Below, piece by piece: positions 9,044 to 46,615 of a DNA stretch of 64,000 bases; position 1 is the first letter of the stretch, and each line of letters starts with the position of its first letter. The DNA is from a virus (lineage: Duplodnaviria > Caudoviricetes): IMG/VR virus record IMGVR_UViG_3300005605_000002, positions 844-64,843 of that record; one strand, given 5' to 3'. The translations under genes were made by a program, and so were the position numbers. The notes beneath the pieces are model-generated. The model did not search any database and was not told the DNA's origin. It saw only the letters and a program-made list of their open reading frames with translations.

Positions 9044-9044
9044 G

Positions 9045-14902: not shown

Positions 14903-14905
14903 ATT

Positions 14906-15827: not shown

Positions 15828-15875
15828 AATTGTATTCAGGATAAATACATATAAGATATCCAGGAGTTAAAAAGA

Positions 15876-17234
15876 ATGGCTTTAAGACTAAGAAGAGGTA
15901 CAAACAGCGAACGAGGCTTAATTACGCCTGCTGACGGTGAATTAGTCTATACTACAGATACTAAAAGACTGTATATAGGTGATGGAACTACTGTAGGTGG
16001 TAATCCAGTTGATACTGCTGGTACGGCTTTTGGTTCTAACGTTGATCTAAATAATTACGACTTAACAGGTACTGGTAATATTAATATTACTGGTAGTATT
16101 ACAGCAACAGGCAATATTACAGCAGATGGAAATTTAACATTAGGCGGCAACCTTATTATAGGTGATGCACCTAGCGATACTGTTAGTTTTTTAGCTAAAG
16201 TAGAAAGCCATGTTCTTCCTGATGTTGACGGTGCAAGAAATCTTGGATCTAGCACTAACAAATTTAATCAAATTTGGGCTAATACTGTTCATGTTACTGA
16301 TGATATAATTTCCCCAAGTGTTAATGCAAATATTGTCGGAGACGATAGTACAGTTTTACTTAATAGAGCAACTGGAGCCTTAAATGCTACAGGTATTCTT
16401 AAAGGTGATGTTAAAGCCGTTGATGATAGCTATTTTTATAATGCAACATCAAAAGCCGTTGTTGCTGGACAAGGTACATTTAGTGGAGTAGTACAAGCTA
16501 GTAGTTTCGTAGGAAGTATAGTAGGCGATGTTCAAGGTACTGTATTTGGTGATGACTCAACTGTATTAGTAGACGGAATTAACGGAACACTTAGTAACGG
16601 AACACTTACATTTAGTGAAGGCGTTCTTGATATTACATCACAAGCAGGAATTGGTAGATATTTAACTATTGGTAAAGATACTGATATAGAAACTCAAGGA
16701 CTTATTTTTAAAGCAGGTTCGGCGGCAGGTAAATTTCTTCAAGTAGAAAGTTTATCAACTGGAACACAATCTACAGGTATAGTTTACAAAGTTTCAAGAG
16801 GCGACCTAGCAACTAAAACAGCTTTACAGGCAGGCGACGAGCTAACATCAATTAAAGTACACGGACACGACGGCACTAACGAAGACACAGTATCAAGTCT
16901 AGTTCAATTTTCTGTTGAAGATGGTGCAACAGTTTCAAACGGTGCAGTACCAGGTAAGATTTTCATTATATCAACACCAGACAATGGTGGAACTTGGGCT
17001 GGTATATCAGTTGACAGTGGTGGAAGACTTTGTGTTGGTGGAACACTAGTTGCAAACTCTGATACAAACTTAGACGTTACAGGTAATGCACAAGTAACTG
17101 GTTATATGAAAATTGGTAACTTAACTACAGTTGAAAGAGATGCATTAACACCAACAGATGGTATGATAATCTACAATACTACTGATTCTAAATTCCAAGG
17201 ACGCACTGGCGTGGCTTGGGTCGACTTACATTAA
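15876..17234 (+). CDS. tail fibre / virion fibre-like protein
   Basis: MALRLRRGT..GELVYTTDTKRLYIGDG N-terminal fibre motif, G-N/S-I-T repeats, repeated GDDSTVL, C-terminal GMIIYNTT; TAAATA at 15842. Confidence 0.75.
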   Translation: MALRLRRGTNSERGLITPADGELVYTTDTKRLYIGDGTTVGGNPVDTAGTAFGSNVDLNNYDLTGTGNINITGSITATGNITADGNLTLGGNLIIGDAPSDTVSFLAKVESHVLPDVDGARNLGSSTNKFNQIWANTVHVTDDIISPSVNANIVGDDSTVLLNRATGALNATGILKGDVKAVDDSYFYNATSKAVVAGQGTFSGVVQASSFVGSIVGDVQGTVFGDDSTVLVDGINGTLSNGTLTFSEGVLDITSQAGIGRYLTIGKDTDIETQGLIFKAGSAAGKFLQVESLSTGTQSTGIVYKVSRGDLATKTALQAGDELTSIKVHGHDGTNEDTVSSLVQFSVEDGATVSNGAVPGKIFIISTPDNGGTWAGISVDSGGRLCVGGTLVANSDTNLDVTGNAQVTGYMKIGNLTTVERDALTPTDGMIIYNTTDSKFQGRTGVAWVDLH

Positions 17235-18313
17235 GCTATATAACGATCAGGTACAGTATCTAATAATGGTAACCCATTATTAATATGTGCATCACGTAAG
17301 ATGATTTGATGTAAAAAGTTACTTACAGGTTTTCCCGGAACAAAATAAGCATAAGGTCCACATTTTAATTGTTCCATATCAATAGTTCTAGCATCACACC
17401 ATTGAATAATTCTATGAACAAGACCGTTAATCTTAACCATATAATGATATAAATTATCGTCTCCTGGTATTTTCTCCCAAGTCCATCCTTTTTTATCAGC
17501 AATACTTTTTATAAGTTTTACGTGATCACTTAAAAAGAATCTAGGTTCATCTGGAGTTCTACCTATATCTGAACCAGCTCTAATTCTATATTCAGTTCTT
17601 GGGTGATTTTTTAGACCCATAGCTTGTATTTCTTCCATTACATCGTCTACTTGGTCTATATGTTCTACTGTATAAAATATTTTCTCTACACACATACCTT
17701 CTTCATTACAAATATCTATACCAGCTACTTGCTTTCCATGTACTACTTTACCTTGATAAGACTCATGGTTTAAACTTAGAACAGCCATTTTAAGGCCAGC
17801 GTCTACAAGTGACTTAACATAATTTCTTTTGGAAAGTTTAACACCATTAGTCATAATACAAACATCATTTCCTCTGTCTGTAATAGCTTTAATTAATTCA
17901 GGTAAATCTTTACGTACTGTACATTCAGCACCTGAAAGGAATACAGTATCCATAGTAGATCGTGTTTGCTCCGTTATCATTTTAAAGATATGGTCAAAAG
18001 ATTTATCTATTATTTTATTATCGGGTTGTAGATAACAATGAGGACATTCTAAATTACAACGATCAGTTACTTCAAATAAAATACAATTTTCATAATTACT
18101 ATCATGATCTTCATCTATAGTATTCTTTCCAGTAGTAACTCTATTATATATTAAACTATTGTAAAATTCAACATCCTTTTCAATACATTCTTCCATATGA
18201 CCATGTTCGGGACACGTTTTAATAAGATAAACTCCATTATCTTTAGTAACACGGTCAGCTGGTATGTGTCTATAACACGTATGACATAAACTTAATGTTT
18301 CTCGATCTTTCAT
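17231..18313 (-). CDS. radical SAM protein with N-terminal Cys/His metal ribbon (MJ0619/Tes-like architecture)
   Basis: SLCHTC...KTCPEHG, CNLECPHC, SGAECT, MTNG. Confidence 0.8.
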   Translation of the reverse strand: MKDRETLSLCHTCYRHIPADRVTKDNGVYLIKTCPEHGHMEECIEKDVEFYNSLIYNRVTTGKNTIDEDHDSNYENCILFEVTDRCNLECPHCYLQPDNKIIDKSFDHIFKMITEQTRSTMDTVFLSGAECTVRKDLPELIKAITDRGNDVCIMTNGVKLSKRNYVKSLVDAGLKMAVLSLNHESYQGKVVHGKQVAGIDICNEEGMCVEKIFYTVEHIDQVDDVMEEIQAMGLKNHPRTEYRIRAGSDIGRTPDEPRFFLSDHVKLIKSIADKKGWTWEKIPGDDNLYHYMVKINGLVHRIIQWCDARTIDMEQLKCGPYAYFVPGKPVSNFLHQIILRDAHINNGLPLLDTVPDRYIA

Positions 18314-18322
18314 TTAATTACC

Positions 18323-18673
18323 CTAGTAGCTATATTTATCATCATCATAATAATCCATATGTCCCCTAGACATATTTGAACAATCAATTCTAACTTTCAA
18401 TTCGACCCTTTGTCTATCTTGTAGAATCGGGTCGATATCTAAAACTAATAAACACTTTTTACAAACGGCATCCATCTTGTTCCATTTCATATTTACTGCA
18501 ATTGCAGGCAATAAATTAATCCCTTGATGGTGTCTTCCGTCTTGTCCATCGTGTTCAATTGGTACATCTACTCGACCTTGGCACGATGGACAATAAATCA
18601 TTAAGGTATCTTTCTTCTTTTGCTCTTGTGCTTCTGCTACATCTGATGGGTGTGCGAAATGTCCCTCAAGCAT
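18323..18673 (-). CDS. small Zn-ribbon-like protein
   Basis: CPSC and CKKC pairs; AAGGAG SD. Confidence 0.6.
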   Translation of the reverse strand: MLEGHFAHPSDVAEAQEQKKKDTLMIYCPSCQGRVDVPIEHDGQDGRHHQGINLLPAIAVNMKWNKMDAVCKKCLLVLDIDPILQDRQRVELKVRIDCSNMSRGHMDYYDDDKYSY

Positions 18674-18682
18674 AATTTCTCC

Positions 18683-19339
18683 TTAGTGAGTTTCGGTTAA
18701 TAGTTCGTAAACTTCTGAGCCTCCTAAATAAGCAAAATAAATTGACCCAATTATAAACAGGTATTTACTGCATTGAAATATTGTATCTGTGGGAACTTTA
18801 TCCATACTCTTTCGCATTATAATAAAAAGACCTATTAAACCAGCAACACCAAGTCCACCACCTAAAAGTATCTCAAAGCCTGAGTCTACACTAGATGAAA
18901 TAAGTGCCACATAGAATAATACAATCTCAAAACCTTCACGTAGTATAGCAATAAAAACGGCAAAAGACAATGCCAAACTTGCTCCAAGCGTTATTTCTTT
19001 GTCTAATGGTTTGAGTTTCGACTGTATATCCTCTTGAAAGTGATTCTTGGCCCCGTGGCACCATATTGACAGATATGCCAATACACCCGCCGCGGTGAGC
19101 ATTGTGACTCCTTCAAACCATTCTTCGTGTTCGTGTGTTAGTCCAGCAATGTATTTGAATCCCATTGCAATGACTATTGATAGTGCGATACCACTTATGA
19201 TGCCGTACCATACGTATTTCTCTTTACCTTGTGCGTGGAACTTCTTTAAATAGGTAAAGATTAACATAGCGATTAGCATCGCCTCGAACCCTTCCCTTAG
19301 AATTATAAAGAAGGACCCAGTTAGTGGTGCTAAAGTCAT
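18683..19339 (-). CDS. FTR1/EfeU family iron permease
   Basis: Two REGFE motifs, several hydrophobic TM segments. Confidence 0.9.
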   Translation of the reverse strand: MTLAPLTGSFFIILREGFEAMLIAMLIFTYLKKFHAQGKEKYVWYGIISGIALSIVIAMGFKYIAGLTHEHEEWFEGVTMLTAAGVLAYLSIWCHGAKNHFQEDIQSKLKPLDKEITLGASLALSFAVFIAILREGFEIVLFYVALISSSVDSGFEILLGGGLGVAGLIGLFIIMRKSMDKVPTDTIFQCSKYLFIIGSIYFAYLGGSEVYELLTETH

Positions 19340-20079
19340 AGTTTATCCTTTTTTACTAACTTAATCAAAGTTGCGGCTGGGTCAAACTCCCACCAGCGTT
19401 CGCCAAATTGCCATTTAGTTGGTTTATTGTGATGATTGTTATGCCACCCTTCACCCCATGTTATAAGATTTGCTAAAAAATTATTATAACTATGATCTTT
19501 TGTATTATATGTACGATATCCAAACATATGACACCAAGCATTTATTTGACCATATGCATGAAAGGCATATACAGCAGGAATACAAAATCCAAAGATAAGC
19601 AATAAAGGATCTATTAATGTTAACCCTAATGCCCAGAAAGTTATAATACTAAAGTAATGCCTATGAATCCACATAACTGTTTTATTTTTTAGTAAGTCAG
19701 CAATAAAACGTTTATCTACTTGTATACGTCCCCAATAATGAATATATATTTTCCACCAATCTTTTTGTATTGGGGAGTGAGGATCTAATTCTTTATCTGT
19801 ATATGCATGATGCATTCTATGAGCTCCTGCCCATGCTAATGGTGATCCACCCATCGCTAAAGATCCTAGAAATAAACTTATCTTTTCAAACCAAGGATGT
19901 GTTTTATAAGCCTTGTGCGACAAGTATCTATGAAATCCTGCAGATATCCCAACGCAACCAATTACGCTCCACCAACCTAGAGCCGCAAGAAACATCCACC
20001 ATTCACCATAATATATTGCGGGAACAATTGCTAAATGATTTAATATATGTATTACTCTTAACTTCGTTTCAAAACTCAT
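19336..20079 (-). CDS. membrane fatty-acid (delta-9-type) desaturase
   Basis: His boxes HRYLSH, HRMHH, HNNHH; DPHSP; GEGWHNNHH. Confidence 0.92.
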   Translation of the reverse strand: MSFETKLRVIHILNHLAIVPAIYYGEWWMFLAALGWWSVIGCVGISAGFHRYLSHKAYKTHPWFEKISLFLGSLAMGGSPLAWAGAHRMHHAYTDKELDPHSPIQKDWWKIYIHYWGRIQVDKRFIADLLKNKTVMWIHRHYFSIITFWALGLTLIDPLLLIFGFCIPAVYAFHAYGQINAWCHMFGYRTYNTKDHSYNNFLANLITWGEGWHNNHHNKPTKWQFGERWWEFDPAATLIKLVKKDKL

Positions 20080-20783
20080 AATCTGCTATCTCGCACATAG
20101 ATTTCCTTTGCTTCTTCTATAAACTCTCTAGGATAATCTTCCCTAAAACTTTCAAAACATAACATTTGCAAATTAAAAAACTCCTCTGGCTGTTCAAAGC
20201 TAATGCCCAAATTAGCCATTGCAGGAAATAATTTTTGCTTCCTATCTTCGCTAATATGACTTAACACATCTTTAACAGCAATCTGTGGTTCTTCTTCTGA
20301 ATAACAAAAGAAATAATTTATACTTTTTAATATACCATTTACGACAAAATAACTACTAGGGTGTAAACTAAATTTATAAAGACCAAGCTCGGCGTGTTTA
20401 GCAATAATATCTAACATTTGATCTTGCCAATCCGGACAGGTTTCATCAAACCCATTTACTGAACAGCTTGATTGTTCCCAAAAATCTGGGCCGTCAACTG
20501 CTAATTTAATTTTACGTTCTTCATTATTAATAGTAATAATTTTGGGAATTAAGTTAGGTGCTTCTACTTCCATAAACTGTAAAAATACAAGTTCTCGTTC
20601 CCATTTTTGATTCATTAATACAGGATCAACTACTTGATTATGTCCTTTATGATATTCAGTATCATTATAATACCATTGTATAAACTCAGTTTGATCCTCA
20701 TTCATAAGGCTTGTATAGACTAAATTATTTCTACATAATCCTTTTCCAGGGACGTTATTATAATAATAATTATATTTACTCAT
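20076..20783 (-). CDS. hypothetical protein, possible degenerate kinase-like fold
   Basis: WERELVFL..IPKII..LYKFSLHPSSYF..INYFF; likely start MSKYNYY. Confidence 0.45.
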   Translation of the reverse strand: MSKYNYYYNNVPGKGLCRNNLVYTSLMNEDQTEFIQWYYNDTEYHKGHNQVVDPVLMNQKWERELVFLQFMEVEAPNLIPKIITINNEERKIKLAVDGPDFWEQSSCSVNGFDETCPDWQDQMLDIIAKHAELGLYKFSLHPSSYFVVNGILKSINYFFCYSEEEPQIAVKDVLSHISEDRKQKLFPAMANLGISFEQPEEFFNLQMLCFESFREDYPREFIEEAKEIYVRDSRL

Positions 20784-21348
20784 AAGTTGGCCATTTTTTT
20801 GCAGTCTGTAATTGTTTAAAATATATATCAGCATTAACCCGCCATACAGTTTGGCGTGTACCTCTGTACTCTAATACTCTTGCCTTTGTATATACTCCTG
20901 TTTCTTCTAACGTAGGAGCAACAATTTTATGTACTAATCGTTGGGTACCTTCTGCATTTTCATTTGTTGTTACATAGTAATTCTTATTAGGACCTGCCCA
21001 TTTAATACCTGCAGGTTGAAAAAATTGTTGTGTAGTGGTTTGATGATTTCTTATTGTATCAGTACCACGTAATCCTTTATATTCTTTAGGCAATTGATCT
21101 GTAAATGTACATATACGACAAGCAATACGATAACTATCAGGTCCCATTTCAGGGAACGAATGTGCCGCTGTACAACCTATAACTTTTTCTTTCCACATTA
21201 ACATCCAAACTTGAAACCTATCTTCTTTAGCTAAAGAATCAACTAACATCTTTTTAGAATTGTTATTAACAAATCCTTTTTGTTGTGCGGTTGCGTAAAA
21301 TTCAGTAAGGTCTAATGTATCCGAGTATGGTATTAACTTAAAAGCCAT
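20776..21348 (-). CDS. GNAT-like acyltransferase
   Basis: VIGCTAAH..YRI..R, YVTTN pattern; 190 aa. Confidence 0.45.
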   Translation of the reverse strand: MAFKLIPYSDTLDLTEFYATAQQKGFVNNNSKKMLVDSLAKEDRFQVWMLMWKEKVIGCTAAHSFPEMGPDSYRIACRICTFTDQLPKEYKGLRGTDTIRNHQTTTQQFFQPAGIKWAGPNKNYYVTTNENAEGTQRLVHKIVAPTLEETGVYTKARVLEYRGTRQTVWRVNADIYFKQLQTAKKWPTYE

Positions 21349-21349
21349 A

Positions 21350-22159
21350 TTAGTAATGCTCTAGGTGAGCTATACCTATCTGCTTTCTGAACTTGTCTGT
21401 GAACACACAGTCAATTCGTAAGCTATATTCTTGTTCGTTGCTGACATCACCACCATGCCAATCTTGATCATTCCAAAATGCCGCATTGGCATTAATGTAT
21501 GTTTTGTTTTTTGCTTCAGGATCCCATATATAGAAGCCTCTTTTAGTTCTATACCTTATATGAATAAACTCATTGTTATGTGGACTAAAGCCTTGTTCGG
21601 TACCTTTAGAGCCATCTAGGTCTCTGTGTTCAAATGCTTTACCACCATGTTCACAATGAAAAAATATAACTCGTCCTATTTGTGTAATAACATTTTTTTC
21701 AATTAATTCTGTAACCCACTTTACAACACCAGGAAAATATTGTTGTTCTGGTGTAGGAGTACGTTTGGCATTGCGTTTGTGCCAGTCGCCTTCTTCCCAA
21801 AGAAAATAATATATGTAAGGATCGTTTGCTCCTAAGGCTGATTTTAAATATCTTGTAAATAAATTTCTTTGTTTATAATCTTTAAAATCTTTTGGAAATA
21901 ACTCTGCACCTTGAACCTTAATAGGATCATTATCAGGTAATGCTTCATATTCCGCAAATGCTTTGTATATAGGTTTCCAATCTATAATATAGCTCATGTC
22001 GTCAAACGTAAACCCAGGCTTCATCCATGTGCCTTCTTTTGCATAGTCCCTTGCTAAAGCAAATCCTTTGCAAATTTCTGGGTGTAATTCTTTAAACCCG
22101 TCTACATCTAAATAATTATCTAATGCAATATATGGTTGCCCACCAATTCCTCTAATCAT
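21350..22159 (-). CDS. AspH/2OG-Fe(II)-like hydroxylase
   Basis: GRV..EHRD..WHG..SLRID double-stranded beta-helix pattern. Confidence 0.6.
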   Translation of the reverse strand: MIRGIGGQPYIALDNYLDVDGFKELHPEICKGFALARDYAKEGTWMKPGFTFDDMSYIIDWKPIYKAFAEYEALPDNDPIKVQGAELFPKDFKDYKQRNLFTRYLKSALGANDPYIYYFLWEEGDWHKRNAKRTPTPEQQYFPGVVKWVTELIEKNVITQIGRVIFFHCEHGGKAFEHRDLDGSKGTEQGFSPHNNEFIHIRYRTKRGFYIWDPEAKNKTYINANAAFWNDQDWHGGDVSNEQEYSLRIDCVFTDKFRKQIGIAHLEHY

Positions 22160-24813: not shown

Positions 24814-24870
24814 ATATATACTTACCGTAAATTGTTAACTGGCCAGTTAAATGCGGTAAATACTGTTATG
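24811..24870. promoter_or_regulatory. symmetric divergent promoter with central palindrome
   Basis: CGGTAARTA-N5-ATG on both strands around perfect TTAACTGGCCAGTTAA (24835-24850). Confidence 0.7.
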
Positions 24871-28609: not shown

Positions 28610-28612
28610 TAT
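28587..28612. repeat. inverted repeat at convergent gene overlap (possible bidirectional terminator)
   Basis: ATATTACGAA-ATATAC-TTCGTAATAT. Confidence 0.75.
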
Positions 28613-36295: not shown

Positions 36296-36310
36296 ATGAA
36301 CCTCCAATCA

Positions 36311-36342
36311 TTATATGCGTATATAAATACTACTAATATTTA
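36311..36342. promoter_or_regulatory. divergent late-like promoter region
   Basis: TATAAATA on + (36322-36329), TAAATA on - (36337-36342), near-palindrome TTATATGCGTATATAA (36311-36326). Confidence 0.6.
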
Positions 36343-36357
36343 TGGCGATTTTTATAT

Positions 36358-38555: not shown

Positions 38556-39717
38556 GTTCAGGAAACGTTTTATTAAAATCTCTATTCCTTATTTTATCAT
38601 AATGCTCTGTATGAACTTTAAACTTATTATGAGCTTTAGCATCATATACCGAACTCTTAATATATCGTAATACCCCCTTTAACTGTTCAGCTATGCCATT
38701 ACTAGGAGCTGTTTGTAGATATTGTGTAATTCTTTGACAAGCTTCTTGTTTCTTATCATCGGGCAATATAGATATTGTATAATGTTTAGGATCAACAATA
38801 TTATATAATATTCCATTTGACACATCAAACCTCTGTTCTTGCATATATTTTAAATAATCGGTAAGTGTTAAGAGATTAAACGCACTTACTACAGTATTAA
38901 AACTCAGTCTAACATGAGGTGATTCTTTTTTAATAAGATTTAAATTATTCATTATTACAAACCATTCAGTTCCTTCACGTATATATTCAGCTCTATCACC
39001 CCAACTATCTAAACTAGCATCAACTTTAACATTAGTAAATTTATTCCATAACTTTGTAATACACTCTTTCTTATAAAACAAATTACTAACATTAGAATTA
39101 TATCTTAACATAACATCAGTACGATTATTATCAATTAAATATTCTAAAATATCATAATGCTTATCAGTAAGTAATGGCTCTCCTCCAGCAAAGTAAAAAA
39201 CATCTATATCTTTATAATAAGGTTTAAATTGCTCGTACAAGTCATCATTATCTTTACCACCTGCAAAAATATAAACTTTTTCTTTACCATCTTCTTGGGC
39301 CCAACTAGAACTAAATGTTGCACTACACGTTCTACATTTAAAATTACAAATATTACTCCAACGTATATCCATATAACGTAATTTCATCTCATCAAGACTG
39401 CCATCTGGATTAGTTTCAGAAACAAATGGCATATACTTTGCAAACTGTCTATTATGATGTATGCGTGGACTATTATTGCCTGCCTGTTCATGAACCCAGC
39501 ATTGTCTACATACGTTAGGTTGCTCTCCATTTAACATTTGTAAACGTAACTTTTTATATTCGGGGCTATTCCATATTTCTTTTATAGGAGTATTCTGAGT
39601 ATTACCTAAAGGACTGTTATAATCACCTACACAACAAGGTAATACATTACCATCTGCATTTGCATACATATGAATCCAAGGTAGGATACAAACTGTTTTA
39701 GATTTGTTTGCAGTCAT
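38539..39717 (-). CDS. radical SAM protein with N-terminal Twitch/SPASM-like domain
   Basis: CILPW..PCC..CRQC, CNFKCRTC, AGGEP. Confidence 0.9.
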   Translation of the reverse strand: MTANKSKTVCILPWIHMYANADGNVLPCCVGDYNSPLGNTQNTPIKEIWNSPEYKKLRLQMLNGEQPNVCRQCWVHEQAGNNSPRIHHNRQFAKYMPFVSETNPDGSLDEMKLRYMDIRWSNICNFKCRTCSATFSSSWAQEDGKEKVYIFAGGKDNDDLYEQFKPYYKDIDVFYFAGGEPLLTDKHYDILEYLIDNNRTDVMLRYNSNVSNLFYKKECITKLWNKFTNVKVDASLDSWGDRAEYIREGTEWFVIMNNLNLIKKESPHVRLSFNTVVSAFNLLTLTDYLKYMQEQRFDVSNGILYNIVDPKHYTISILPDDKKQEACQRITQYLQTAPSNGIAEQLKGVLRYIKSSVYDAKAHNKFKVHTEHYDKIRNRDFNKTFPELNGVF

Positions 39718-41077
39718 TATAAAATCCTTCTAGTTCTGGAAAAGTTTTTGTTAAACTACAATCTCTACGCTTATCAAACTCAGTGAACCAATTATAAAAA
39801 TCTGTCCGTGCTTGTTTAAGTTTAGCAGATTCGTAATTTGTTACACGCATATAATTAACTACACGTCTAAATTTTTCTACTTCTAGTGAGCTAAATTTTG
39901 TTCTATCCCTATCGTCTTGATATTCATGCATTAACTGTAAGTGCTTTTCCATATATGACATAAATTTGTCTTTAGGTAATATATTCATATCATATATACT
40001 TGGCTCTTTTAAATGCGGTGTATCAAATCTTATACGTTGCCATTGTGTTTCGTTTGCGGCTGAGTTATACTTACATCGCCATTCTAATATTTTTTCTAAT
40101 AATAAATTAAAACTAGTTACAGAAAAAATATTAAATGTAATCATAAATGTTACAGGCCAACCTGTATTACTTAAATAATGATCTAAATTTTCTTCCCATA
40201 ATTTAATATCTAGTCCTGTACGTGCATACTCGGCTCTTGGTCCCCAAGTATCAATACTTGTATATAATTTAAAACTTTTAATACAATTTTTTTCTTTAAG
40301 TCTTAATACTGTATTAGTTAATTTCTCAACTAATGCATGTTTAACACCCATGTTACTATTAACTTCAATTTGTATATGAGGTTTAGGATCTGCTTCTAAT
40401 TTTTCAAATAAATCCCATAAACTTTTATGCATTAAAGGTTCGCCACCAGTAATACGTAAGATGTTTAAAGTCTTACTAACTTCAGGCCACCACTTCCACC
40501 ATGCATCAACATAAGGATTTTCTTCTTCATTTTTATAAACTTTAAACCAATCAATATCTTGTCTATGAGTACTTGACATTTTATAAGGTCCATGGTCCTC
40601 AATTTCTTTCCAGTATCTGCTACTAGCCTTAGGATGACAATACCCACATTTAAAATTACATTCATTTGAAAAACTAATTTCGATATACTCAGGATTTACG
40701 TTAAATTCTGGTCCTTTTTGTTTTATTTCCGCAACTCTTTCTGGAGTATATATACTTGCTGTTTTAATATGCCTGTCGCTTACATAATCTTTACCCATAG
40801 CTTCAATTTTCCAACAATAACTACAACCATCTGGTTTTTCGCCACAAAGCATTTGCTTACGTTGATCTTTTTTCTCAATAGTATTATGTAATGCACTTGG
40901 GTTGTCTTTTAATTCTTCTAATGGTATAGGGTGCGGAGCAGGATGATAACAACTATGTGTTTCGCCTGTTGCTAGATAGATAGTAGTATGATGCCATTTG
41001 GCTAGACAAAAAGTAGGGCTAATTTCTGCATTAGTGATAGGTAATAGTCTTTTAATTTTAGCTAATTCTTTTTCCAT
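39698..41077 (-). CDS. radical SAM protein with N-terminal Twitch-like domain
   Basis: FCLAKW..SCYH..CSYC, CNFKCGYC, TGGEP; likely start MEKEL (TAATG coupling). Confidence 0.9.
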   Translation of the reverse strand: MEKELAKIKRLLPITNAEISPTFCLAKWHHTTIYLATGETHSCYHPAPHPIPLEELKDNPSALHNTIEKKDQRKQMLCGEKPDGCSYCWKIEAMGKDYVSDRHIKTASIYTPERVAEIKQKGPEFNVNPEYIEISFSNECNFKCGYCHPKASSRYWKEIEDHGPYKMSSTHRQDIDWFKVYKNEEENPYVDAWWKWWPEVSKTLNILRITGGEPLMHKSLWDLFEKLEADPKPHIQIEVNSNMGVKHALVEKLTNTVLRLKEKNCIKSFKLYTSIDTWGPRAEYARTGLDIKLWEENLDHYLSNTGWPVTFMITFNIFSVTSFNLLLEKILEWRCKYNSAANETQWQRIRFDTPHLKEPSIYDMNILPKDKFMSYMEKHLQLMHEYQDDRDRTKFSSLEVEKFRRVVNYMRVTNYESAKLKQARTDFYNWFTEFDKRRDCSLTKTFPELEGFYNDCKQI

Positions 41078-41382
41078 TAGCCTACCCAATTTAAATTTTT
41101 AGCATAGTCTTCTCTTTTTATTCTCTCTGAACGTCTAACCTGAGGATACTTTAATACAAATAACATAGCTTTTTTATCATTTTTAAATTTTGCATATAAA
41201 TGGCAATGAAGCATATCAAAGTCGCTAGGCACACTTCGTTCTTCTGTAATTGTTGCACCATACTTAAATGCATCATCTAATATAGGACCCATTTGATCTC
41301 GCATAATTTGATCGTGCCATATATCAGAACTTTCGTCATCTTTTAAACGAAACGTTCCTATATAGTATCTACAATTACTCAT
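41077..41382 (-). CDS. small hypothetical protein
   Basis: 101 aa, coupled to both neighbours. Confidence 0.65.
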   Translation of the reverse strand: MSNCRYYIGTFRLKDDESSDIWHDQIMRDQMGPILDDAFKYGATITEERSVPSDFDMLHCHLYAKFKNDKKAMLFVLKYPQVRRSERIKREDYAKNLNWVG

Positions 41383-42278
41383 TTTCTACCTATAACCCTG
41401 TCTGTATTAATGTAAACAGTTTTAAAAAACTTACTTTGGTCTGCTGTTAACGGTTGTTCACTTAATGGCAAGTCTAATTCTTTTAATCTAAAACCAAGTT
41501 CACCAACATTATGATATATTTCATCATCTTTTACTTTACTATATTTTTCATCCCACATTTTATTAAGAATAGTAAAATCTCTTGTTTGCGAAACGTCCCA
41601 GTCAGTAAGTGCAAGATGGCATCCTTCTCTTGCTCCATAAATTGCCCATATACCATTATCAACATCAGTACCAACATTCATCCATATTAATAATCTATGA
41701 TAATTTTGCCACCATACATCTTCTGCTAGGTTAGTAACTTTAGCACCTCTGTTAAGACTCATCTTAACACCTTCTCTAAATCCTGCTCTAAAGGCTTGGG
41801 CTTTAGTTGAATTAATAATACTTTCACTATAATTGTCATTTAATTGATAATAATTATCAAAATAACAGAATTCTATCATTGTATCATCATTACCATCGGT
41901 GTTTTCGTGTGTACGCATATTGCTTACAAAATCTTTAGTCCACATTTTTAAACTACCATTACCATACATTAGTCCATTGATGTTAACTTTGCCACACCAA
42001 CTAAATTGATAATCGTCGTCTACTCCTAACGCATCTAAGTCAAGTTTAACATTTAAAAAATTAGGATCAATAATTGTGTCACCATCAACTGTTACAAAAT
42101 GTTTAGTTTCAGATAACTCTGCACACGCCTTATGTGCGGCATCTGATCCTTCTACACCATGAACACGTTTTGCCCATGGTACTTTTTTAACTAAATCAAC
42201 ATAATTCTTTTCAGCATTAGGTTCGTCATAACTTAAAAAGATGATATCTTGTTCTGCAATATTAATGTACATATTCAT
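41379..42278 (-). CDS. GT-A fold glycosyltransferase-like protein
   Basis: LSYDEPNA..HGVEG..TVDGD; paralog of 33620-34303. Confidence 0.65.
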   Translation of the reverse strand: MNMYINIAEQDIIFLSYDEPNAEKNYVDLVKKVPWAKRVHGVEGSDAAHKACAELSETKHFVTVDGDTIIDPNFLNVKLDLDALGVDDDYQFSWCGKVNINGLMYGNGSLKMWTKDFVSNMRTHENTDGNDDTMIEFCYFDNYYQLNDNYSESIINSTKAQAFRAGFREGVKMSLNRGAKVTNLAEDVWWQNYHRLLIWMNVGTDVDNGIWAIYGAREGCHLALTDWDVSQTRDFTILNKMWDEKYSKVKDDEIYHNVGELGFRLKELDLPLSEQPLTADQSKFFKTVYINTDRVIGRK

Positions 42279-42868
42279 TGAATAACTCCGTATGAATATT
42301 CGTCAAATTTTTTCATTGTATAAATTGACACTTCTTCGCCTTCAAATTCAAATTTATCTGTAAAAGGTATTATAACATATTTGTTATTTTCTAAACTAGA
42401 AAAATCAACATATAAAGTCTTATAAAGAATGTTAGGATCATTCTTTCTTGTAACACTTAGACTAACTGTATTATTTAAACTAATATGTTGAGATAGAATA
42501 TTTGCTTTAAGGTTGCCACCTATTTGAATTTTCCAGCATGTATCTTTTATATTCTGTGTTATATTTAAATCTGCATTATCTAAATTGTTCTTAGGTATTT
42601 CATATATTAAATCATTAACACTATAACTATCTATATTGTTGTTTATACGTAATCTTAGTTCATAACCTTTTGTTATTTTAGAATAATGTACATAATAATA
42701 AGACATTTGGTCTTCACCTGATAATAACCCGGCAACTTCTAGAGGATCTACTTCTATAAAATCACACTTTTCTGGTTTATAATTAGGTAACGATAATAAT
42801 TCGCCAGTTTCAGAATTAAAAACAGCGTATCGTTTATTACTTTGTTCTTCTTGTTTTAATATTACCAT
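42275..42868 (-). CDS. hypothetical protein
   Basis: 197 aa coupled ORF. Confidence 0.7.
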   Translation of the reverse strand: MVILKQEEQSNKRYAVFNSETGELLSLPNYKPEKCDFIEVDPLEVAGLLSGEDQMSYYYVHYSKITKGYELRLRINNNIDSYSVNDLIYEIPKNNLDNADLNITQNIKDTCWKIQIGGNLKANILSQHISLNNTVSLSVTRKNDPNILYKTLYVDFSSLENNKYVIIPFTDKFEFEGEEVSIYTMKKFDEYSYGVIQ

Positions 42869-43626
42869 TTTTCTATTAACTTTGTTTCATGTGGGATTTC
42901 CCGCATAGTTTTATTAATACGTATAACTTCCATTAGAAGTGATAAGTCGTCTTGATGAGTACTTGCTAGTGCTTGTATATCTTTTGGAAGACATACTCCA
43001 CCAAAGCCTCGGTGACCATCATCGCCTGGAACTAAAGAATGACTATGTCCTATACGCTTATCTGCACAAACTAAACTATTAACTGTATTATAATCTAATT
43101 TTTCCTTTTCACATATAGTATACAACTGATTAAAAAATGTAACTTTTGTTGCCAGGTATGCATTTCTAAATAACTTTGCAGTAATTAACGCACGAGGGCT
43201 TTCTTTAGAAACAGTAAAAATATCTGAGAACTTTTTAATCCAGAATTTTGTATCGCCGCCACCAACATACATTATTCCTTGATCTCTAAATGCTTCTATT
43301 GGATTAGCTGACGTAAGAAATTCAGGACTAAACGTTATAAATCTTTTATCAAACATTGCTTGTATTTGATCCCATGCATGTAAACTTATTGTGCTTTTTA
43401 TTAAGATCGGTACGTTTCTAGGACAGTTTTTTAATACATCTAATACATTAGATGGATCACAAATACCATTTTTAGTAGGTGTATTAACACAAATAATAAC
43501 ACATGACGGTTTATTCCACCAACCTCCAATTGAGTTATTGTTATATTTAGGATCTACAATTTTAGCTTTAGGAAAAACGCTATGAATTGCTCTACCTACA
43601 TATCCATATCCAGCAATAACTATCAT
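42862..43626 (-). CDS. UDP-glucose dehydrogenase-like protein lacking the C-terminal domain
   Basis: GYGYVG, VNTP, KST, SPEFL, KLFRNAYLATKV, GFGGVCLPKD; about 254 aa. Confidence 0.85.
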   Translation of the reverse strand: MIVIAGYGYVGRAIHSVFPKAKIVDPKYNNNSIGGWWNKPSCVIICVNTPTKNGICDPSNVLDVLKNCPRNVPILIKSTISLHAWDQIQAMFDKRFITFSPEFLTSANPIEAFRDQGIMYVGGGDTKFWIKKFSDIFTVSKESPRALITAKLFRNAYLATKVTFFNQLYTICEKEKLDYNTVNSLVCADKRIGHSHSLVPGDDGHRGFGGVCLPKDIQALASTHQDDLSLLMEVIRINKTMREIPHETKLIEKW

Positions 43627-44459
43627 ATCTTTAACCACTCCTTGTATTTTTGAATTTTATCCTCTGTAACAAAGTCTTTTTCTGTGTAATGAAAAATTCC
43701 TTGCTGTAAATGGTTTCCTATTTTTAATTTTAAATCATCTGTTAAATAACTTCCGACACGATCTTGCCATTTGCTACTAGGATTTTCCCAACCTTGTATA
43801 TAAGACTTCATATGTGTAAAACTAGGAAATAAACATTTATTATTTGTAATTTTTTTATCACAATCAAGTATTTTAGCTACTATTGCCGCACTTAAATCTA
43901 CACTAAGGTTTTTTTGATAAAGTTCTTTAGCATATTTTCCATAAAAGAATTCCCAGTTATTCATTACTAGCTCTAACCACGAATAAAAGTCTTTTGCAAA
44001 ATCACATTTCTTAAAATAATGAAATCCTGCATATAAATTTGGTAGAGAATTAGCTGTAAATGTTTTACGATAATGATCGCTAGTTATTAATTCTCCTCTA
44101 TACGTATAAACATTACTAACAAAAAATAAATCATAATTTTTTAAGAATGTCCACCAATTTTCTAAGTCTTGCAATACTAACATATCAGTATCAAGTATAA
44201 TTGTTTCGTCATACGGTGATGCGTGATATAATTTCCAACGATTATCTACTTTCCATTCTTTATCACTAGCACTATCGTTCCACGGAATTTCTTTTATTAC
44301 ATCAAATAGACTAATATACTCAGATGGAACTGTATCATTTGTAATTAAACAAATGTTAGATTCTTTTTGTGTTGCTTTTATACTCATAGCTAAAAGACAT
44401 GCTTGTAAAACATAGTCATCTTGGCTGTTTTGTGCTATAACTACAAAGCCTTTACTCAT
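43623..44459 (-). CDS. GT-A fold (GT8-like) glycosyltransferase
   Basis: SPYDETIILDTDML, C-terminal FHY. Confidence 0.7.
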   Translation of the reverse strand: MSKGFVVIAQNSQDDYVLQACLLAMSIKATQKESNICLITNDTVPSEYISLFDVIKEIPWNDSASDKEWKVDNRWKLYHASPYDETIILDTDMLVLQDLENWWTFLKNYDLFFVSNVYTYRGELITSDHYRKTFTANSLPNLYAGFHYFKKCDFAKDFYSWLELVMNNWEFFYGKYAKELYQKNLSVDLSAAIVAKILDCDKKITNNKCLFPSFTHMKSYIQGWENPSSKWQDRVGSYLTDDLKLKIGNHLQQGIFHYTEKDFVTEDKIQKYKEWLKI

Positions 44460-45309
44460 TATCTATTATCCTATTAAGACTAAACTTATTAATTACATGA
44501 ACACTACTACCTCTAACTTTTAAAGGAGTATATTCTCCTAAGTATTTGTCTTTTTGTATTAAAAATAAAAATTTGTCGTCTGTTAAATCCCATAAAATAT
44601 CTTTATCACTAGTAAAATATAACTTTCCTGGTAGTTCATGTGAAAAATTACCTCTTTGATAACCATTCATTATATGTACAGCAATACTAAACACCCAATC
44701 ATTACGGAATGTATTTTTATTAATCTGAAAAATACTATTATAGTGTGGCCAGTTCTCTTGTATATGCTTTGTTAATTCGAAATAAATTTTATTAGTTTGA
44801 GTTTTTCTAAAAAATACACAAGTAGCCCAATAAAAATCAACACTAGTATCACTAATATGTTGAAATCGTGGATCATTCCTATATCCACTTAAATCATGTG
44901 AATTTTTATAAATTAAAAAATCATGTTCTTGTGTAAAACAATGTGTAAATAACTGATTATTAATAATATAATCACTATCTAACAATAATGTTTCATCATA
45001 TGGGGTTAAATCGTATGCTTGAGTTCGTAAATCATTTTTAAATTCTAATTGCTTGTATATATTACTGCCATCATAGTAACGTTTTATACTTAAAGGTCGC
45101 GAATATGGCACCTCTATTATCTTATCAAAGACTGTTTCATAGTCTTTATACGTATCTTTAAGATATTGAAGACTATCCGTTACAATAGACGTTGGAAGAT
45201 TTAAATATTCTTTGACACGTTTTGCTAAAAAATGAGCTTGTTTTATATAATCTATTTGAGCATTATTCCTAGCAAATATTAATACGCCTTGTTTATTGCT
45301 CATACTCAA
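44452..45309 (-). CDS. GT-A fold (GT8-like) glycosyltransferase
   Basis: TPYDETLLLDSDY, RND, HVINK; paralog of the adjacent gene. Confidence 0.7.
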   Translation of the reverse strand: MSMSNKQGVLIFARNNAQIDYIKQAHFLAKRVKEYLNLPTSIVTDSLQYLKDTYKDYETVFDKIIEVPYSRPLSIKRYYDGSNIYKQLEFKNDLRTQAYDLTPYDETLLLDSDYIINNQLFTHCFTQEHDFLIYKNSHDLSGYRNDPRFQHISDTSVDFYWATCVFFRKTQTNKIYFELTKHIQENWPHYNSIFQINKNTFRNDWVFSIAVHIMNGYQRGNFSHELPGKLYFTSDKDILWDLTDDKFLFLIQKDKYLGEYTPLKVRGSSVHVINKFSLNRIIDNE

Positions 45310-45649
45310 TTAATCCGTCTACGGACCTTTTAGTTCGTATTTTTTCATACTCTGTTTGATATTCATTAGTTGCTGTAAAGTAAATATCTAGTATATCAGT
45401 AAAAAAGGTATTTAAATCTTCAATTTTAACTGGAGTATCATTATCGTCCAGTAATACAATATCAGAATCATTACCTTTAGTACATAACATATTCACAAAA
45501 GTAATTAATTCTTTAGTTACTGCAAATTGGCCGCCATTAAAATAATGGACTGCACTTTCGTAATATTTTTCTTTTAAAATACGCTTTTGGTTATTAAGCG
45601 TTACCATATAATTAGAAAATTCTAATGCTTTGGATAAGCGTTCATCCAT
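45293..45649 (-). CDS. hypothetical phage protein
   Basis: AGGAG SD, 118 aa; heads the long minus-strand unit. Confidence 0.75.
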   Translation of the reverse strand: MDERLSKALEFSNYMVTLNNQKRILKEKYYESAVHYFNGGQFAVTKELITFVNMLCTKGNDSDIVLLDDNDTPVKIEDLNTFFTDILDIYFTATNEYQTEYEKIRTKRSVDGLIEYEQ

Positions 45650-46612: not shown

Positions 46613-46615
46613 TTG

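Follow-up and report, generated by a model that had tools for sequence, protein, structure and literature searches.

The ~28-kb island at 17231-45649, in which 34 closely packed ORFs lie between the tail-fibre genes of a marine jumbo phage, may encode a glycan-building and tailoring pathway belonging to the tail-fibre module, with a virion fibre or tail protein as the likeliest acceptor. As a whole this reading is tentative; of its parts, the predicted sugar-making is well supported, while the virion as the target of the products is what we infer from gene arrangement. The window analysed is a 64,000-nucleotide stretch of an IMG/VR record that represents ~18% of a genome, so partner genes may sit elsewhere. 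A Pfam family above cut-off is missing for 20 of the 34 ORFs.

Radical SAM enzymes dominate the island. The nine CxxxCxxC genes recognised earlier all pass the Pfam Radical_SAM cut-off (30.1-54.3 against 29.5 bits), and a scan of the whole record returned the same nine. Four of them belong to NF033640, an uncharacterised N-terminal-twitch family (NCBIfam cut-off 170 bits).

17231-18313 (-): radical SAM enzyme with N-terminal Zn-ribbon, TrsS/Tes-like (Pfam Zn_ribbon_HMPTM 56.2, Radical_SAM 49.4 bits)
25631-26905 (+): N-terminal-twitch radical SAM no. 1 (NF033640, 322 bits)
27713-28609 (+) and 28590-29588 (-): two small convergent radical SAM enzymes (Pfam 54.3 and 41.2 bits)
29585-31006 (-): N-terminal-twitch radical SAM no. 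2, core-module type (NF033640, 389 bits)
31601-32569 (-): radical SAM enzyme (Pfam 47.7 bits)
32566-33639 (-): radical SAM enzyme, SPASM-like C-terminal Cys pattern (Pfam 33.6 bits)
38539-39717 (-): N-terminal-twitch radical SAM no. 3 (NF033640, 386 bits)
39698-41089 (-): N-terminal-twitch radical SAM no. 4 (NF033640, 309 bits)

The Zn-ribbon enzyme scored far under the cut-offs of the NCBIfam TrsS and Tes models. In twitch enzyme no. 1 a SPASM domain (11-71) precedes the Radical_SAM domain (122-288; Pfam). Both small enzymes have Cys clusters at the C-terminus and are paralogous with 31601-32569, whose type has counterparts of 45-52% identity in 19 bacterial loci; the 32566 type, present in 24, matches the NCBIfam BlsE model weakly (3.7e-7). 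The four twitch paralogues share 23-30% identity with one another and are each closer to bacterial homologues (up to 35-49%; no. 2 reaches 49% with Bdellovibrionota proteins), which fits separate steps rather than recent duplicates and would fit distinct old subfamilies.

The partners of these enzymes are transferases and nucleotide-sugar dehydrogenases.

33620-34303 (-): GT2-like GT-A domain protein, family A2, copy 1 (family-level PF00535)
41379-42278 (-): GT2-like GT-A domain protein, family A2, copy 2 (34% identical to copy 1)
43623-44459 and 44452-45309 (-): two paralogous GT8-like (glycogenin-like) GT-A glycosyltransferases (profile A5)
36358-37632 (+): conserved protein, 424 aa, fold unassigned (22/69 viral loci)
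35123-36307 (-): NDP-sugar 6-dehydrogenase, UDP-Glc/GDP-Man DH family (Pfam N-terminal 69.1, central 65.5 bits)
42862-43638 (-): truncated NDP-sugar dehydrogenase homologue, 258 aa (Pfam central domain 65.2 bits)

What had been counted as four or five glycosyltransferases comes to two GT8-like and two GT2-like proteins, recognised at the profile level; no Pfam GT model matched the window's own copies. Profile A5 matched glycogenin-1 (1zct, E=6.1e-5, residues 4-103) and 1091 protein clusters at E<=0.001, and the GT8-like pair has hydrophobic-DxD motifs. For A2, family members P0364, P0365, P0368, P0376 and P0384 pass the PF00535 cut-off within the domain; in profile-profile comparison of A2, neither the GT2 nor the GT8 sets reached a probability of 1%. 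Three proteins (L058:3208-5376, P0235, P0266) are natural fusions of A2 with a twitch radical SAM enzyme, and P0177 joins A2 to two GT2 domains. The 424-aa protein had no Pfam or PDB match, profile A9 included; it carries a weak hint of GT10 likeness (Atlas feature score 0.78 for GT10 clusters, below the 0.9 bar). Both dehydrogenases, as proposed earlier, have UDPG_MGDP_dh domains above the Pfam cut-off. The first matches the UDP-glucose dehydrogenase PHROG (1.3e-92) and stays below the TIGR03026 cut-off (170 against 189.8). The second lacks the C-terminal domain and a large part of the NAD-binding domain (Pfam N-terminal domain sub-threshold), and is missing in related contigs L002, L003 and L006.

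A further set of proteins could tailor the sugars.

22152-23060 (-): PLP aminotransferase-like (fold type I), short, 302 aa (profile A4)
24139-24813 (-): AspH-like Fe(II)/2OG beta-hydroxylase (Pfam Asp_Arg_Hydrox 24.0 against 22.6 bits)
24832-25644 (+): PP-loop ATPase, QueC/Asn-synthase-like (SGGxDS at residue 45; PHROG QueC-like 2e-7)
31003-31611 (-): methyltransferase-like protein, family A3 (Atlas viral clusters auto-named methyltransferase)
34296-35126 (-): SGNH-like hydrolase/acyltransferase, motifs only (GDS 8, GGAGN 75, DNGHP 256)
37629-38555 (+): SGNH-like protein, GCS variant, motifs only (GCS 16, SGAGN 46, DGHP 228)

Among three AspH/2OG-like hydroxylases claimed before, 24139-24813 holds (PDB 7v4f 'Beta-hydroxylase', E=1.2e-5), but the other two had no supporting match. 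The PLP enzyme, methyltransferase, QueC-like ATPase and both SGNH proteins survive as "-like" assignments, on profiles or motifs. Profile A4 matches PDB aminotransferase 3if2 (E=0.007), and member L013:14465-15484 exceeds the Pfam Aminotran_1_2 cut-off (24.5 against 19.7). The PP-loop ATPase falls under the Pfam QueC cut-off (16.7 bits), and homologues of it from two bacterial clusters, L056 and L062, match QueC, PP-loop and Asn_synthase. Sequence searches of Pfam and PDB gave no match for 31003-31611; as a lead, the nearest Pfam-bearing Atlas cluster to A3 has Methyltransf_31 in 21% of members. Both SGNH-like proteins have the S, G, N and H motifs in the correct order; 34296-35126 matched no Pfam family, and the motif residues of 37629-38555 are invariant across A7, a 34% relative included.

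Bacterial neighbourhoods (76 loci) point in the same direction. Twitch radical SAM relatives adjoin FdtA and NDP-hexose 2,3-dehydratase genes in L040 (Poseidonocella) and L043 (Sphingomonas). The relative in L020, from a Polyangiaceae MAG, has a polysaccharide deacetylase, an NTP_transferase and a pair of GT2 genes as neighbours, and the one in L014 (Paenibacillus) has a GT2 gene in its vicinity. Aminotransferase-like homologues adjoin twitch genes in 14 of the 76 loci, A3 occurs in 14, and Bdellovibrionota have homologous clusters rich in radical SAM genes. The earlier suggestion of unusual sugars is genuinely strengthened by these neighbours, the fusions, the GT8-like transferases and the NDP-sugar dehydrogenases.

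The remaining ORFs are less telling.

18323-18673 (-): small Cys-containing protein, 116 aa (no Pfam, PHROG or NCBIfam family)
18683-19339 (-): FTR1/EfeU-type iron permease, short, 218 aa (Pfam FTR1 93.9 bits)
19336-20079 (-): membrane fatty-acid-desaturase family protein (Pfam FA_desaturase 56.7 bits)
20076-20834, 20776-21348 and 21350-22159 (-): three ORFs, no family
23060-23581 and 23568-24146 (-): two ORFs, no family (Cupin_2 and DREV matches sub-threshold only)
26898-27725 (+): 275-aa ORF, no Pfam family (relatives in 4/69 viral loci)
41077-41382 (-): 101-aa protein, no Pfam family (conserved in 7 related contigs)
42275-42868 (-): 197-aa protein, no Pfam family (8/69 viral loci)
45293-45649 (-): conserved 118-aa protein, first in the right-hand unit (17/69 viral loci)

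The desaturase and permease labels stand, both domains exceeding Pfam cut-offs; the NCBIfam DesA-like and EfeU/Ftr1 models stay under theirs, and the permease has four hydrophobic segments. They lie in a variable four-gene module (17231-20079) that is missing from L088/L089. The ORFs at 20076-22159 keep 48-85% identity in L088-L090 and had no Pfam, PHROG or NCBIfam family; their kinase-like, GNAT-like and 2OG-like labels came from the earlier note, and family searches lent no support to these labels or to either of the two kinase-like ORFs named there.

A promoter-like motif is common to the island and the structural genes. Of the 65 listed starts, 8 have TAAATA at 25-36 nt upstream, where random positions would give 0.52 +/- 0.72 (5000 draws, maximum 4). 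These include island units 18313 (-25), 36307 (-35), 36358 and 45649, and structural genes 15876 (-34), 46616 and 51995. The copy for 45649 is at 45674-45679 on the minus strand (-30), and TATAAATA lies at 36322-36329, ahead of 36358. A TAA(A/G)TA element had been claimed before every unit; it precedes four of six, but the divergent pair 24813/24832 has no well-placed TAAATA. TTGACA..TATAAT-type sites precede 9107 and 12923, in keeping with their assignment to 0-14 kb, and sigma-70-like sites are not enriched in the island (90 against 105.5 +/- 10.9 in shuffles). From the TAAATA motif, the island may be expressed late.

Both flanks carry fibre genes, as first described.

15876-17234 (+): left-flank fibre-like gene, 452 aa (Pfam Mtd_N, N-terminal, 45.5 against 26.3 bits)
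45707-46612 (-): fibre-like, T/G/N-rich (45707-like in 21/69 viral loci)
46616-48115, 48152-49966 and 49966-51987 (-): three paralogous fibre genes, N-termini in common
51995-63932 (-): conserved 204-aa protein and 3766-aa virion structural protein (phrog_11259, phrog_10938)

A homologue of the left gene (77% identical) borders the island in L088/L089. The PHROG matches of 46616-51987 are tail fibre or tail protein, and consensus A10 is among the bases for the fibre block 45707-51987. The 3766-aa protein (52632-63932) matches a protein detected in virions by mass spectrometry (PMC8504454), ORF361 of RsoM2USA, a cultured Ralstonia jumbo phage.

Linkage to structural genes, named beforehand as a refutation test, holds across deep divergence, including in the cultured phage. 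Gene order is the same in 14 close contigs. Divergent phages (31-62% identity) keep, co-directionally and in this order, 51995-like, fibre, 45707-like, 45293-like, two GT8, A2 and twitch radical SAM genes. From marine contigs to RsoM2USA, the order of a core set of genes (fibre, two GT8, GT2-like, twitch radical SAM, GT2-like, methyltransferase-like) is preserved, and many other large phages have smaller versions of the island at this position. In the 69 viral loci (L092-L160) the two GT8-like genes occur in 28 and 27 and the 41379-type A2 in 30. Identities in RsoM2USA are 37% and 34% for the GT8-like pair, 43% for the 41379 type, 34% for A3, 35% for 45293-45649 and 37% for the 39698 type (57-58% in divergent phages). 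There a mini-cassette, ORF347-354, directly follows a gene of fibre-like type and lies near the genes for tail sheath, baseplate and structural proteins confirmed by MS. Cassettes of GT8 and radical SAM genes in fibre regions were previously known: the 'host recognition clusters' of pelagimyophages are described as combining tail fibres with GT8 transferases, a UDP-glucose dehydrogenase and cassettes of radical SAM genes (PMC7029224), and the claim that no known pathway has such a make-up was too strong. Twelve radical SAM genes are also reported from a marine T4-like genome (PMC5332604). The new observations here are the order-conserved core cassette, the fusions of A2 with twitch radical SAM enzymes, the NDP-deoxysugar genes beside bacterial homologues and the Bdellovibrionota clusters.

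What would such a pathway modify? A virion fibre or tail protein is the most likely acceptor because the cassette is welded to fibre genes. No membrane protein, flippase or polymerase is predicted in the conserved part of the island, which favours a cytoplasmic acceptor. LPS cores, however, are also among the targets of GT8 enzymes, and the similar pelagimyophage regions are interpreted as modifying the host O-chain (PMC7029224); both count against a virion acceptor. Linkage to structural genes also has an exception in Vibrio phage K566, where five twitch-radical-SAM-like genes lie among NAD-salvage genes, away from structural genes. Moreover, 7-deazaguanine genes are present within the window, placing DNA modification within the phage's repertoire, a point against the glycan reading.

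Under that preferred glycan reading, the NDP-sugar dehydrogenase would supply a nucleotide-activated uronic acid, and the PP-loop ATPase and the aminotransferase-, methyltransferase-, AspH- and SGNH-like proteins could install ordinary amide, amino, methyl, hydroxyl and acyl groups. The nine radical SAM enzymes would perform radical chemistry at unactivated sugar carbons (epimerisation, dehydration, C-methylation and decarboxylation being candidates) and, above all the four N-terminal-twitch enzymes, may partner GT-A transferases. The GT2-like and GT8-like transferases would then place the products onto a cytoplasmic acceptor, most likely one of the tail-fibre or tail proteins of the virion, which would be modified during particle assembly.

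The island (17231-45649), a block of radical SAM and glycosyltransferase-like genes lying between fibre genes, comprises 34 tightly packed ORFs, and its predicted enzymes probably form a pathway for making and tailoring sugars or glycans. The genes most relevant to this reading are as follows:

25631-26905, 29585-31006, 38539-39717 and 39698-41089: radical SAM enzymes of the NF033640 family
17231, 27713, 28590, 31601 and 32566 (starts): the five other radical SAM enzymes
22152-23060: aminotransferase-like, by family profile and relatives
24139-24813: AspH-like hydroxylase
24832-25644: protein with the PP-loop motif SGGxDS
31003-31611: methyltransferase-like, by Atlas only
33620-34303 and 41379-42278: GT2-like (family A2)
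34296-35126 and 37629-38555: SGNH-like
35123-36307: nucleotide-sugar dehydrogenase
36358-37632: sub-threshold GT10 lead only, by Atlas
42862-43638: truncated dehydrogenase (258 aa)
43623-44459 and 44452-45309: GT8-like pair

The nine radical SAM genes recognized in the earlier note by their CxxxCxxC motif all pass the Pfam Radical_SAM model (PF04055), with 30.1-54.3 bits against a gathering cut-off of 29.5 bits; a scan of the whole record recovers the same nine, and a GGE-type SAM motif is found by regular expression in seven of them. Four belong to NCBIfam NF033640 (“twitch domain-containing radical SAM protein,” N_Twi_rSAM), which they match in full (model positions 1-398) with 309-389 bits; the curated cut-off is 170 bits, and none of 14 control genomes exceeded it. 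In three of the four, a Pfam SPASM match lies N-terminal to Radical_SAM. Cysteines are invariant in NF033640 at positions 10, 28, 70, and 73 (numbering of the reference copy), in the pattern CX17GX4C(C)...CxxC. The predicted auxiliary-cluster domain of the four ORFs precedes the radical SAM core, and Fe-S cluster binding is predicted for it. The four paralogues are 23-30% identical to one another, less than each is to its nearest homologues in bacteria, which marks them as separate enzymes of long standing. The other five radical SAM proteins have C-terminal cysteine patterns with no Pfam SPASM match, no specific model matched them, and the peptide-maturase models all scored far below their cut-offs. 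Literature searches yielded neither a published function for any NF033640 member nor a functional study joining radical SAM enzymes with jumbo phage glycosyltransferases, twitch nucleotide-sugar chemistry, or tail-fibre glycosylation.

Pfam cut-offs are also passed in the island by an FTR1 permease, a fatty-acid-desaturase family protein, an AspH-like hydroxylase, and NDP-sugar dehydrogenases, whereas 20 of the 34 ORFs have no match above cut-off, and relaxing the thresholds for 18 unassigned ORFs added nothing reliable. The desaturase and iron permease labels of the earlier note are thus borne out. Of its three AspH/2OG-like hydroxylase candidates, only 24139-24813 passes PF05118 (24.0 bits, cut-off 22.6; PDB 7v4f “Beta-hydroxylase,” E = 1.2e-5). 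For the two other hydroxylase candidates, the GNAT-like ORF, and the two kinase-like ORFs, the family searches gave no reliable match. Both of the nucleotide-sugar dehydrogenases in that note carry a central domain above cut-off, but one of them is incomplete: 35123-36307 has the N-terminal and central domains above cut-off (C-terminal domain 16.7 vs. 30; PHROG 1.3e-92), while in 42862-43638 the central domain alone passes, marking a truncated member of the UDP-glucose/GDP-mannose dehydrogenase family that may be in decay or have a non-catalytic partner role.

Family alignments were built from homologues in the fetched loci. The profile of the GT8-like pair matches glycogenin-1 (E = 6.1e-5) over residues 4-103 only; DxD motifs are present and Pfam Glyco_transf_8 gives no match. 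Homologues of the GT8-like gene (1091 protein clusters) and of the 36358-37632 family retrieved in searches were only unnamed proteins with no Pfam domain. The A2 profile finds 1642 representatives, and five of 10 scanned relatives pass PF00535 within the A2 domain, seven of the 10 having been preselected by an existing GT2 label. The two copies in the window have no Pfam match, and hhalign gave probabilities of 0.95% against a GT2 set and below 1% against a GT8-like set. In three proteins (L058:3208-5376, from a fetched locus, and the A2-bearing proteins P0235 and P0266) the A2 domain is fused to a radical SAM enzyme with an N-terminal twitch, and in another (P0177) to two GT2 domains. In many longer proteins A2 forms the C-terminal domain behind long Pfam-free regions. 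In the two SGNH-like proteins the S-G-N-H motifs follow the expected order (blocks I, II, III, and V) and are invariant in the family of 37629-38555; neither a model nor a PDB entry matches these proteins. PDB sequence-profile searches with six family alignments (A2; A3, methyltransferase-like; A6; A7, SGNH-like; A9, the 36358-37632 family; A10, fibre block) returned nothing usable.

A plausible sequence of events can be drawn from these assignments. The dehydrogenase would oxidize a nucleotide sugar to the uronic acid. The PP-loop, PLP-like, methyltransferase-like, AspH-like, and SGNH-like proteins could then account for amidation, amination, methylation, hydroxylation, and acylation, and the radical SAM enzymes would carry out radical chemistry at unactivated sugar carbons, by analogy with BtrN, DesII, AviX12, and BlsE. 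Finally, the GT2-like and GT8-like enzymes would transfer the products. At the left end of the island, a four-gene module (17231-20079) encodes a Tes/TrsS-like zinc-ribbon radical SAM enzyme, a 116-aa protein, the FTR1 permease, and the membrane desaturase. Fe-S enzymes (nine or more) and Fe(II) oxygenases are neighbours of the permease, which may serve their iron demand.

Synteny was compared across related phage contigs, a check proposed earlier. The gene order of the island is kept in 14 close IMG/VR contigs, and the core recurs in divergent phages and in the cultured Ralstonia jumbo phage RsoM2USA (MG752970). The island is modular. Two close contigs (L088 and L089) lack module 17231-20079, so that the fibre gene abuts a gene like 20776; in a 185-kb contig (L096) none of the left half is present, and the locus stops at a fibre gene like 15876; the truncated dehydrogenase 42862-43638 is missing from three relatives. 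A wider scan of IMG/VR gave at least 649 stretches with twitch-radical-SAM-like genes, and in 39 of the 69 viral loci first fetched from it (L092-L160) three or more radical SAM genes lie within 21 kb or less. In divergent phages (31-62% amino acid identity) a co-directional array recurs, in this order:

gene like 51995
fibre-N-terminus-like gene
gene like 45707
gene like 45293
GT8
GT8
small ORF
A2
twitch radical SAM of the 39698 type
further twitch radical SAMs
small radical SAM
gene like 36358

RsoM2USA carries a minimal cassette at 34-43% identity (ORF347-355, all annotated as hypothetical), which begins with the fibre-like ORF355 and continues from ORF354 to ORF347:

gene like 45293
GT8
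GT8
small ORF
A2
twitch radical SAM
A2
methyltransferase-like gene

This cassette adjoins structural proteins confirmed by mass spectrometry as well as tail sheath and baseplate genes (PMC8504454). The mass spectrometry covered the most abundant gel bands only and served protein identity, and radical SAM has no occurrence in the available text of that paper (PMC8504454). Linkage to fibres is not universal in the enzyme family: as a counter-example, Vibrio phages K566 and K567 carry five twitch-radical-SAM-like genes among NAD-salvage genes. K566 (record positions 159168-171009) is KVP40-like and cultured, with a twitch radical SAM cluster of about 10 kb, and both phages could be used as a laboratory model for the enzyme family.

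Outside viruses, a scan with one genome per species found 238 cellular relatives of the twitch radical SAM, and the loci of the best 76 were analysed. Going by record title, about 53 of these 76 come from MAGs of the Bdellovibrionota type; complete chromosomes account for several. A twitch radical SAM gene that stands singly adjoins sugar-nucleotide and polysaccharide genes:

Poseidonocella and Sphingomonas: FdtA, NDP-hexose 2,3-dehydratase
Polyangiaceae MAG: NTP_transferase, two GT2 genes, deacetylase
Paenibacillus: SDR, ketosynthases, AMP-ligase, GT2

Chromosomal clusters with seven to 11 radical SAM genes per 21 kb (L041, L056, L073, and others) occur in Bdellovibrionota MAGs and in a marine gammaproteobacterial MAG. 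They also hold PP-loop, TauD/2OG, B12-radical-SAM, SDR, GT2, PMT_2, and PNP_UDP_1/nucleosidase-family genes, and no described function was found for them. In nine of the 76 cellular loci five families of the island occur together, namely the twitch radical SAM of the 29585 type (42-49% identity in bacteria), the radical SAMs of the 31601 (45-52%) and 32566 types, the methyltransferase-like family, and A2. One cellular locus (L013, a Haliscomenobacter MAG contig, 8542-17441) combines a twitch radical SAM with Metallophos/SMC-like (SbcCD-type) genes, two copies of the aminotransferase-like family, and a SegE GIY-YIG endonuclease; this stretch looks like phage or prophage DNA within a bacterial bin.

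The fibre genes that had been placed on both flanks of the island are indeed there. The left flanking gene has an Mtd_N fibre domain, and on the right three paralogous fibre genes (46616-51987) have similar N-termini (32-40% identity over the first 170-300 residues) and different C-termini, so that by sequence they look like alternative receptor-binding fibres on one adaptor. Island and structural genes also have a promoter-like motif in common. ATAAATA occurs 16 times on both strands, 11 of these within 80 nt upstream of a same-strand start, and TAAATA begins 25-36 nt upstream of eight of 65 starts (0.52 ± 0.72 expected):

18313, 36307, 36358 and 45649: island units
15876, 46616 and 51995: structural genes
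10919: a further gene

The statement in the earlier note that every island unit starts at a TAA(A/G)TA element applies to these four units, but not to the divergent units 24813 and 24832, which have no well-placed copy. It placed TTGACA/TATAAT-type promoters in 0-14 kb; sigma-70-like sites precede 9107 and 12923 and are not enriched in the island. TAAATA resembles the T4 late promoter TATAAATA. It is read as “late” because of this analogy and of its presence before structural genes, and by the same analogy the island would be expressed late. The omics paper on PA5oct, in its available text, defines only TATAATA and TTGAC promoters and no late motif (PMC7318152). Between the divergent starts of 24139-24813 and 24832-25644 there are merely 18 bp (24814-24831); thus, either both promoters are embedded in the adjacent genes or translation of 24832 does not begin at the TTG. 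An in-frame ATG is found downstream, at 24868.

The IMG/VR record whose bases 844-64843 make up the window is 64,843 bp long, with an estimated completeness of about 18% (CheckV), and no cultured phage matches the window at the DNA level. At the protein level, the ATPase 11733-12827 is 50% identical to its counterpart in PA5oct-like phages, and the 3766-aa protein 52632-63932 is ~25% identical to structural proteins of ~350 kb phages and also matches ORF361 of RsoM2USA, which is present in virions by mass spectrometry (PMC8504454). These proteins point to the PA5oct/Rak2/RsoM2USA group of jumbo myophages. The possibility of a T4-like pelagimyophage was considered and rejected, the best cultured relatives of the backbone being PA5oct, Rak2-like phages, and RsoM2USA. 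The stretch 29585-39500 is near-identical (at least 96% of sampled words) in 15 marine/seawater metagenome runs from 12 studies, and this is therefore a widespread marine phage. Short contigs (~150-580 nt, 90-99% identity) covering parts of the island and one fibre gene were found in four marine RNA-library runs (three studies); they were not counted as evidence of transcription or timing because they come from relatives and the libraries may contain DNA. Searches of the window for tRNAs and Rfam families found none. Genes of the 7-deazaguanine pathway, for GTP cyclohydrolase I and a QueE-like radical SAM, lie in an early plus-strand region (6425-8116, also 3034-4664), with endonuclease V-like, phosphoribosyltransferase-like, and cysteine-dioxygenase-like genes close by; independently of the island, a deazaguanine is probably introduced into the phage DNA.

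What would be the acceptor of the glycan? The gene content is as expected for a virus-encoded virion-glycosylation system, in that the phage has its own enzymes for sugar nucleotides and predicted transferases, in linkage with structural genes. We favour a fibre or tail protein of the virion because the conserved part encodes no predicted membrane protein and has an ancient position inside the tail module; this complete statement, pathway and acceptor together, we hold tentatively, at slightly less than an even chance. Alternatively, the same enzymes could act from the cytoplasmic side on glycans of the host envelope (LPS core, O-chain, or capsule), which would alter the surface of the infected cell and block superinfection or re-adsorption of progeny. 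GT8 is a classic LPS-core family, the bacterial relatives sit in polysaccharide-type contexts, PMT_2 and a GT2 protein of 623 aa are found in the Bdellovibrionota clusters, and the fibre-linked pelagimyophage cassettes with GT8, UDP-glucose dehydrogenase, and radical SAM have been read in this way (PMC7029224). However, the conserved cassette lacks a flippase, polymerase, ligase, initiating transferase, or other membrane protein, its genes are embedded in the tail module and share its direction, also in a Ralstonia phage from soil, where the host envelope is very different, and serotype conversion would pay less for a strictly lytic jumbo phage than for a temperate one. Envelope remodelling is rather unlikely. 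It is improbable, too, that the island hypermodifies phage DNA with tailored sugars or other groups on the bases to evade restriction. Phage glycosyltransferases that decorate DNA with diverse glycans were reportedly described by Pyle and colleagues in 2024, base-hypermodification systems are known to include PLP, PP-loop, and 2OG-type enzymes like those discussed here, and 7-deazaguanine enzymes (GTP cyclohydrolase I and QueE) are encoded in the window. Yet the cassette sits among tail genes rather than replication genes and shares its motif with the structural genes, not the sigma-70-like sites of 0-14 kb; family-model scans of the island gave no hydroxymethylase, DpdA-like, or TET/JBP match, and the bacterial contexts are NDP-deoxysugar and polysaccharide genes.

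The modular make-up of the island, seen in the absence of 17231-20079 from L088 and L089, of the left half from L096, and of the truncated dehydrogenase from three relatives, would suit a hypervariable dumping ground in which unrelated auxiliary metabolic genes pile up next to the fibres, a site of frequent recombination, without making up a single pathway, and pelagimyophage fibre regions are described as hypervariable (PMC7029224). Against such a gathering, the same five families stand together in nine of 76 bacterial loci, gene order is fixed down to 31-37% identity, and domain fusions join two of the families; the chance of it is low. Highly improbable is direct action of the radical SAM and AspH-like enzymes on amino acid side chains of a fibre or of a small precursor, by RiPP-like epimerization, cross-linking, or hydroxylation, with the sugars secondary. 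Many SPASM/twitch enzymes are peptide maturases and weak matches to such models occur, AspH enzymes hydroxylate protein residues, and small conserved ORFs (41077-41382, 45293-45649) are at hand, but every one of those maturase models stays far below its cut-off, the bacterial neighbours of the twitch family are sugar-nucleotide enzymes, and what the fusions add is a GT-A domain rather than one that recognizes peptides. Least probable of all is a free small molecule (oligosaccharide, aminoglycoside-like, or nucleoside-like) directed at the host or at competitors. As a set, the enzymes look like those of sugar-antibiotic clusters (BtrN, DesII, and AviX12, and BlsE through a model match), and “antibiotic synthesis genes,” a radical SAM among them, are suggested in the available text of a cyanophage paper (PMC12801897). 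However, neither an exporter nor a resistance gene was found, and so close and old a link with fibre genes would be surprising for a product that diffuses away.

Fibre-linked regions with GT8, UDP-glucose dehydrogenase, and radical SAM cassettes are already known in pelagimyophages, as part of the variable “host recognition cluster” of pelagimyophages and cyanomyophages, which holds fibres, GT8, UDP-glucose 6-dehydrogenase, and radical SAM cassettes (Zaragoza-Solas et al., 2020, PMC7029224). The island is like the pelagimyophage cluster in this content, in its modular variation, and in its marine setting, and AspH-like hydroxylase genes, of which the island has one, are common in those phages (PMC7029224). 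The backbones differ, T4-like in pelagimyophages and of the PA5oct, Rak2, and RsoM2USA jumbo type in the window. The available text of the pelagimyophage paper gives no radical SAM family assignment, conserved core order, fusions, or bacterial counterpart, and favours modification of the host O-chain (PMC7029224). A marine T4-like genome with 12 radical SAM genes has also been noted (PMC5332604). Our search of the printed literature did not find the NF033640 assignment, a core order reaching a cultured phage, GT-A::radical SAM fusions, or the homologous Bdellovibrionota clusters, although supplementary tables may list more on radical SAM cassettes.

The RsoM2USA cassette shares the order of the island and its position beside structural proteins confirmed by mass spectrometry; it differs in having one radical SAM gene instead of nine, in lacking dehydrogenase, SGNH, PLP, and AspH genes, and in its soil/plant host. 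Virus-encoded glycosylation of the particle is established for giant viruses and a few mycobacteriophages, and mycobacteriophage capsid and tail glycosylation was reportedly described by Freeman and colleagues in 2023. To our knowledge, radical SAM chemistry has not previously been tied to such systems, and we know of no radical SAM enzymes in those of Megavirinae or mycobacteriophages. Like the island, both encode their own nucleotide-sugar enzymes and glycosyltransferases, thought to decorate the outer virion, but their glycans have been shown chemically; for the island, a glycan is predicted from the genes. For Megavirinae, the clusters in question are those of fibril glycosylation (PMC10117803, PMC9614988). 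The clusters of Bdellovibrionota and of the marine gammaproteobacterial MAG have five families and a multiplicity of radical SAM genes in common with the island; they differ in being chromosomal, in a rearranged order, and in the absence of fibre genes and of the GT8 pair. BtrN, DesII, AviX12, and BlsE are twitch/SPASM radical SAM enzymes of sugar-antibiotic pathways. The island enzymes would resemble them in radical chemistry on sugars or nucleotide sugars, in auxiliary Fe-S clusters, and in their setting among transferases, methyltransferases, and oxygenases, but the auxiliary-cluster domain of NF033640 is N-terminal, and the characterized models all score below their cut-offs for the island.

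The cassette is common (at least 649 IMG/VR stretches, 1091 GT8-like clusters, 15 marine/seawater runs), and its occurrence in a cultured phage makes NF033640 and the “dark” families, A2 and the 36358 type, directly testable. A real fibre glycan would have a bearing on host range, ocean phage ecology, and new radical sugar chemistry. A bolder and rather doubtful proposal is that twitch radical SAM enzymes, paired with GT-A domains by docking or fusion, radically edit sugars during or after their transfer onto tail fibres. If so, large phages and predatory Bdellovibrionota would have gained a combinatorial “glycan coat” chemistry with no characterized counterpart, and the number of radical SAM paralogues (one to nine per cassette) would set the complexity of the fibre glycan and, through it, adsorption, stability, and evasion of host recognition.
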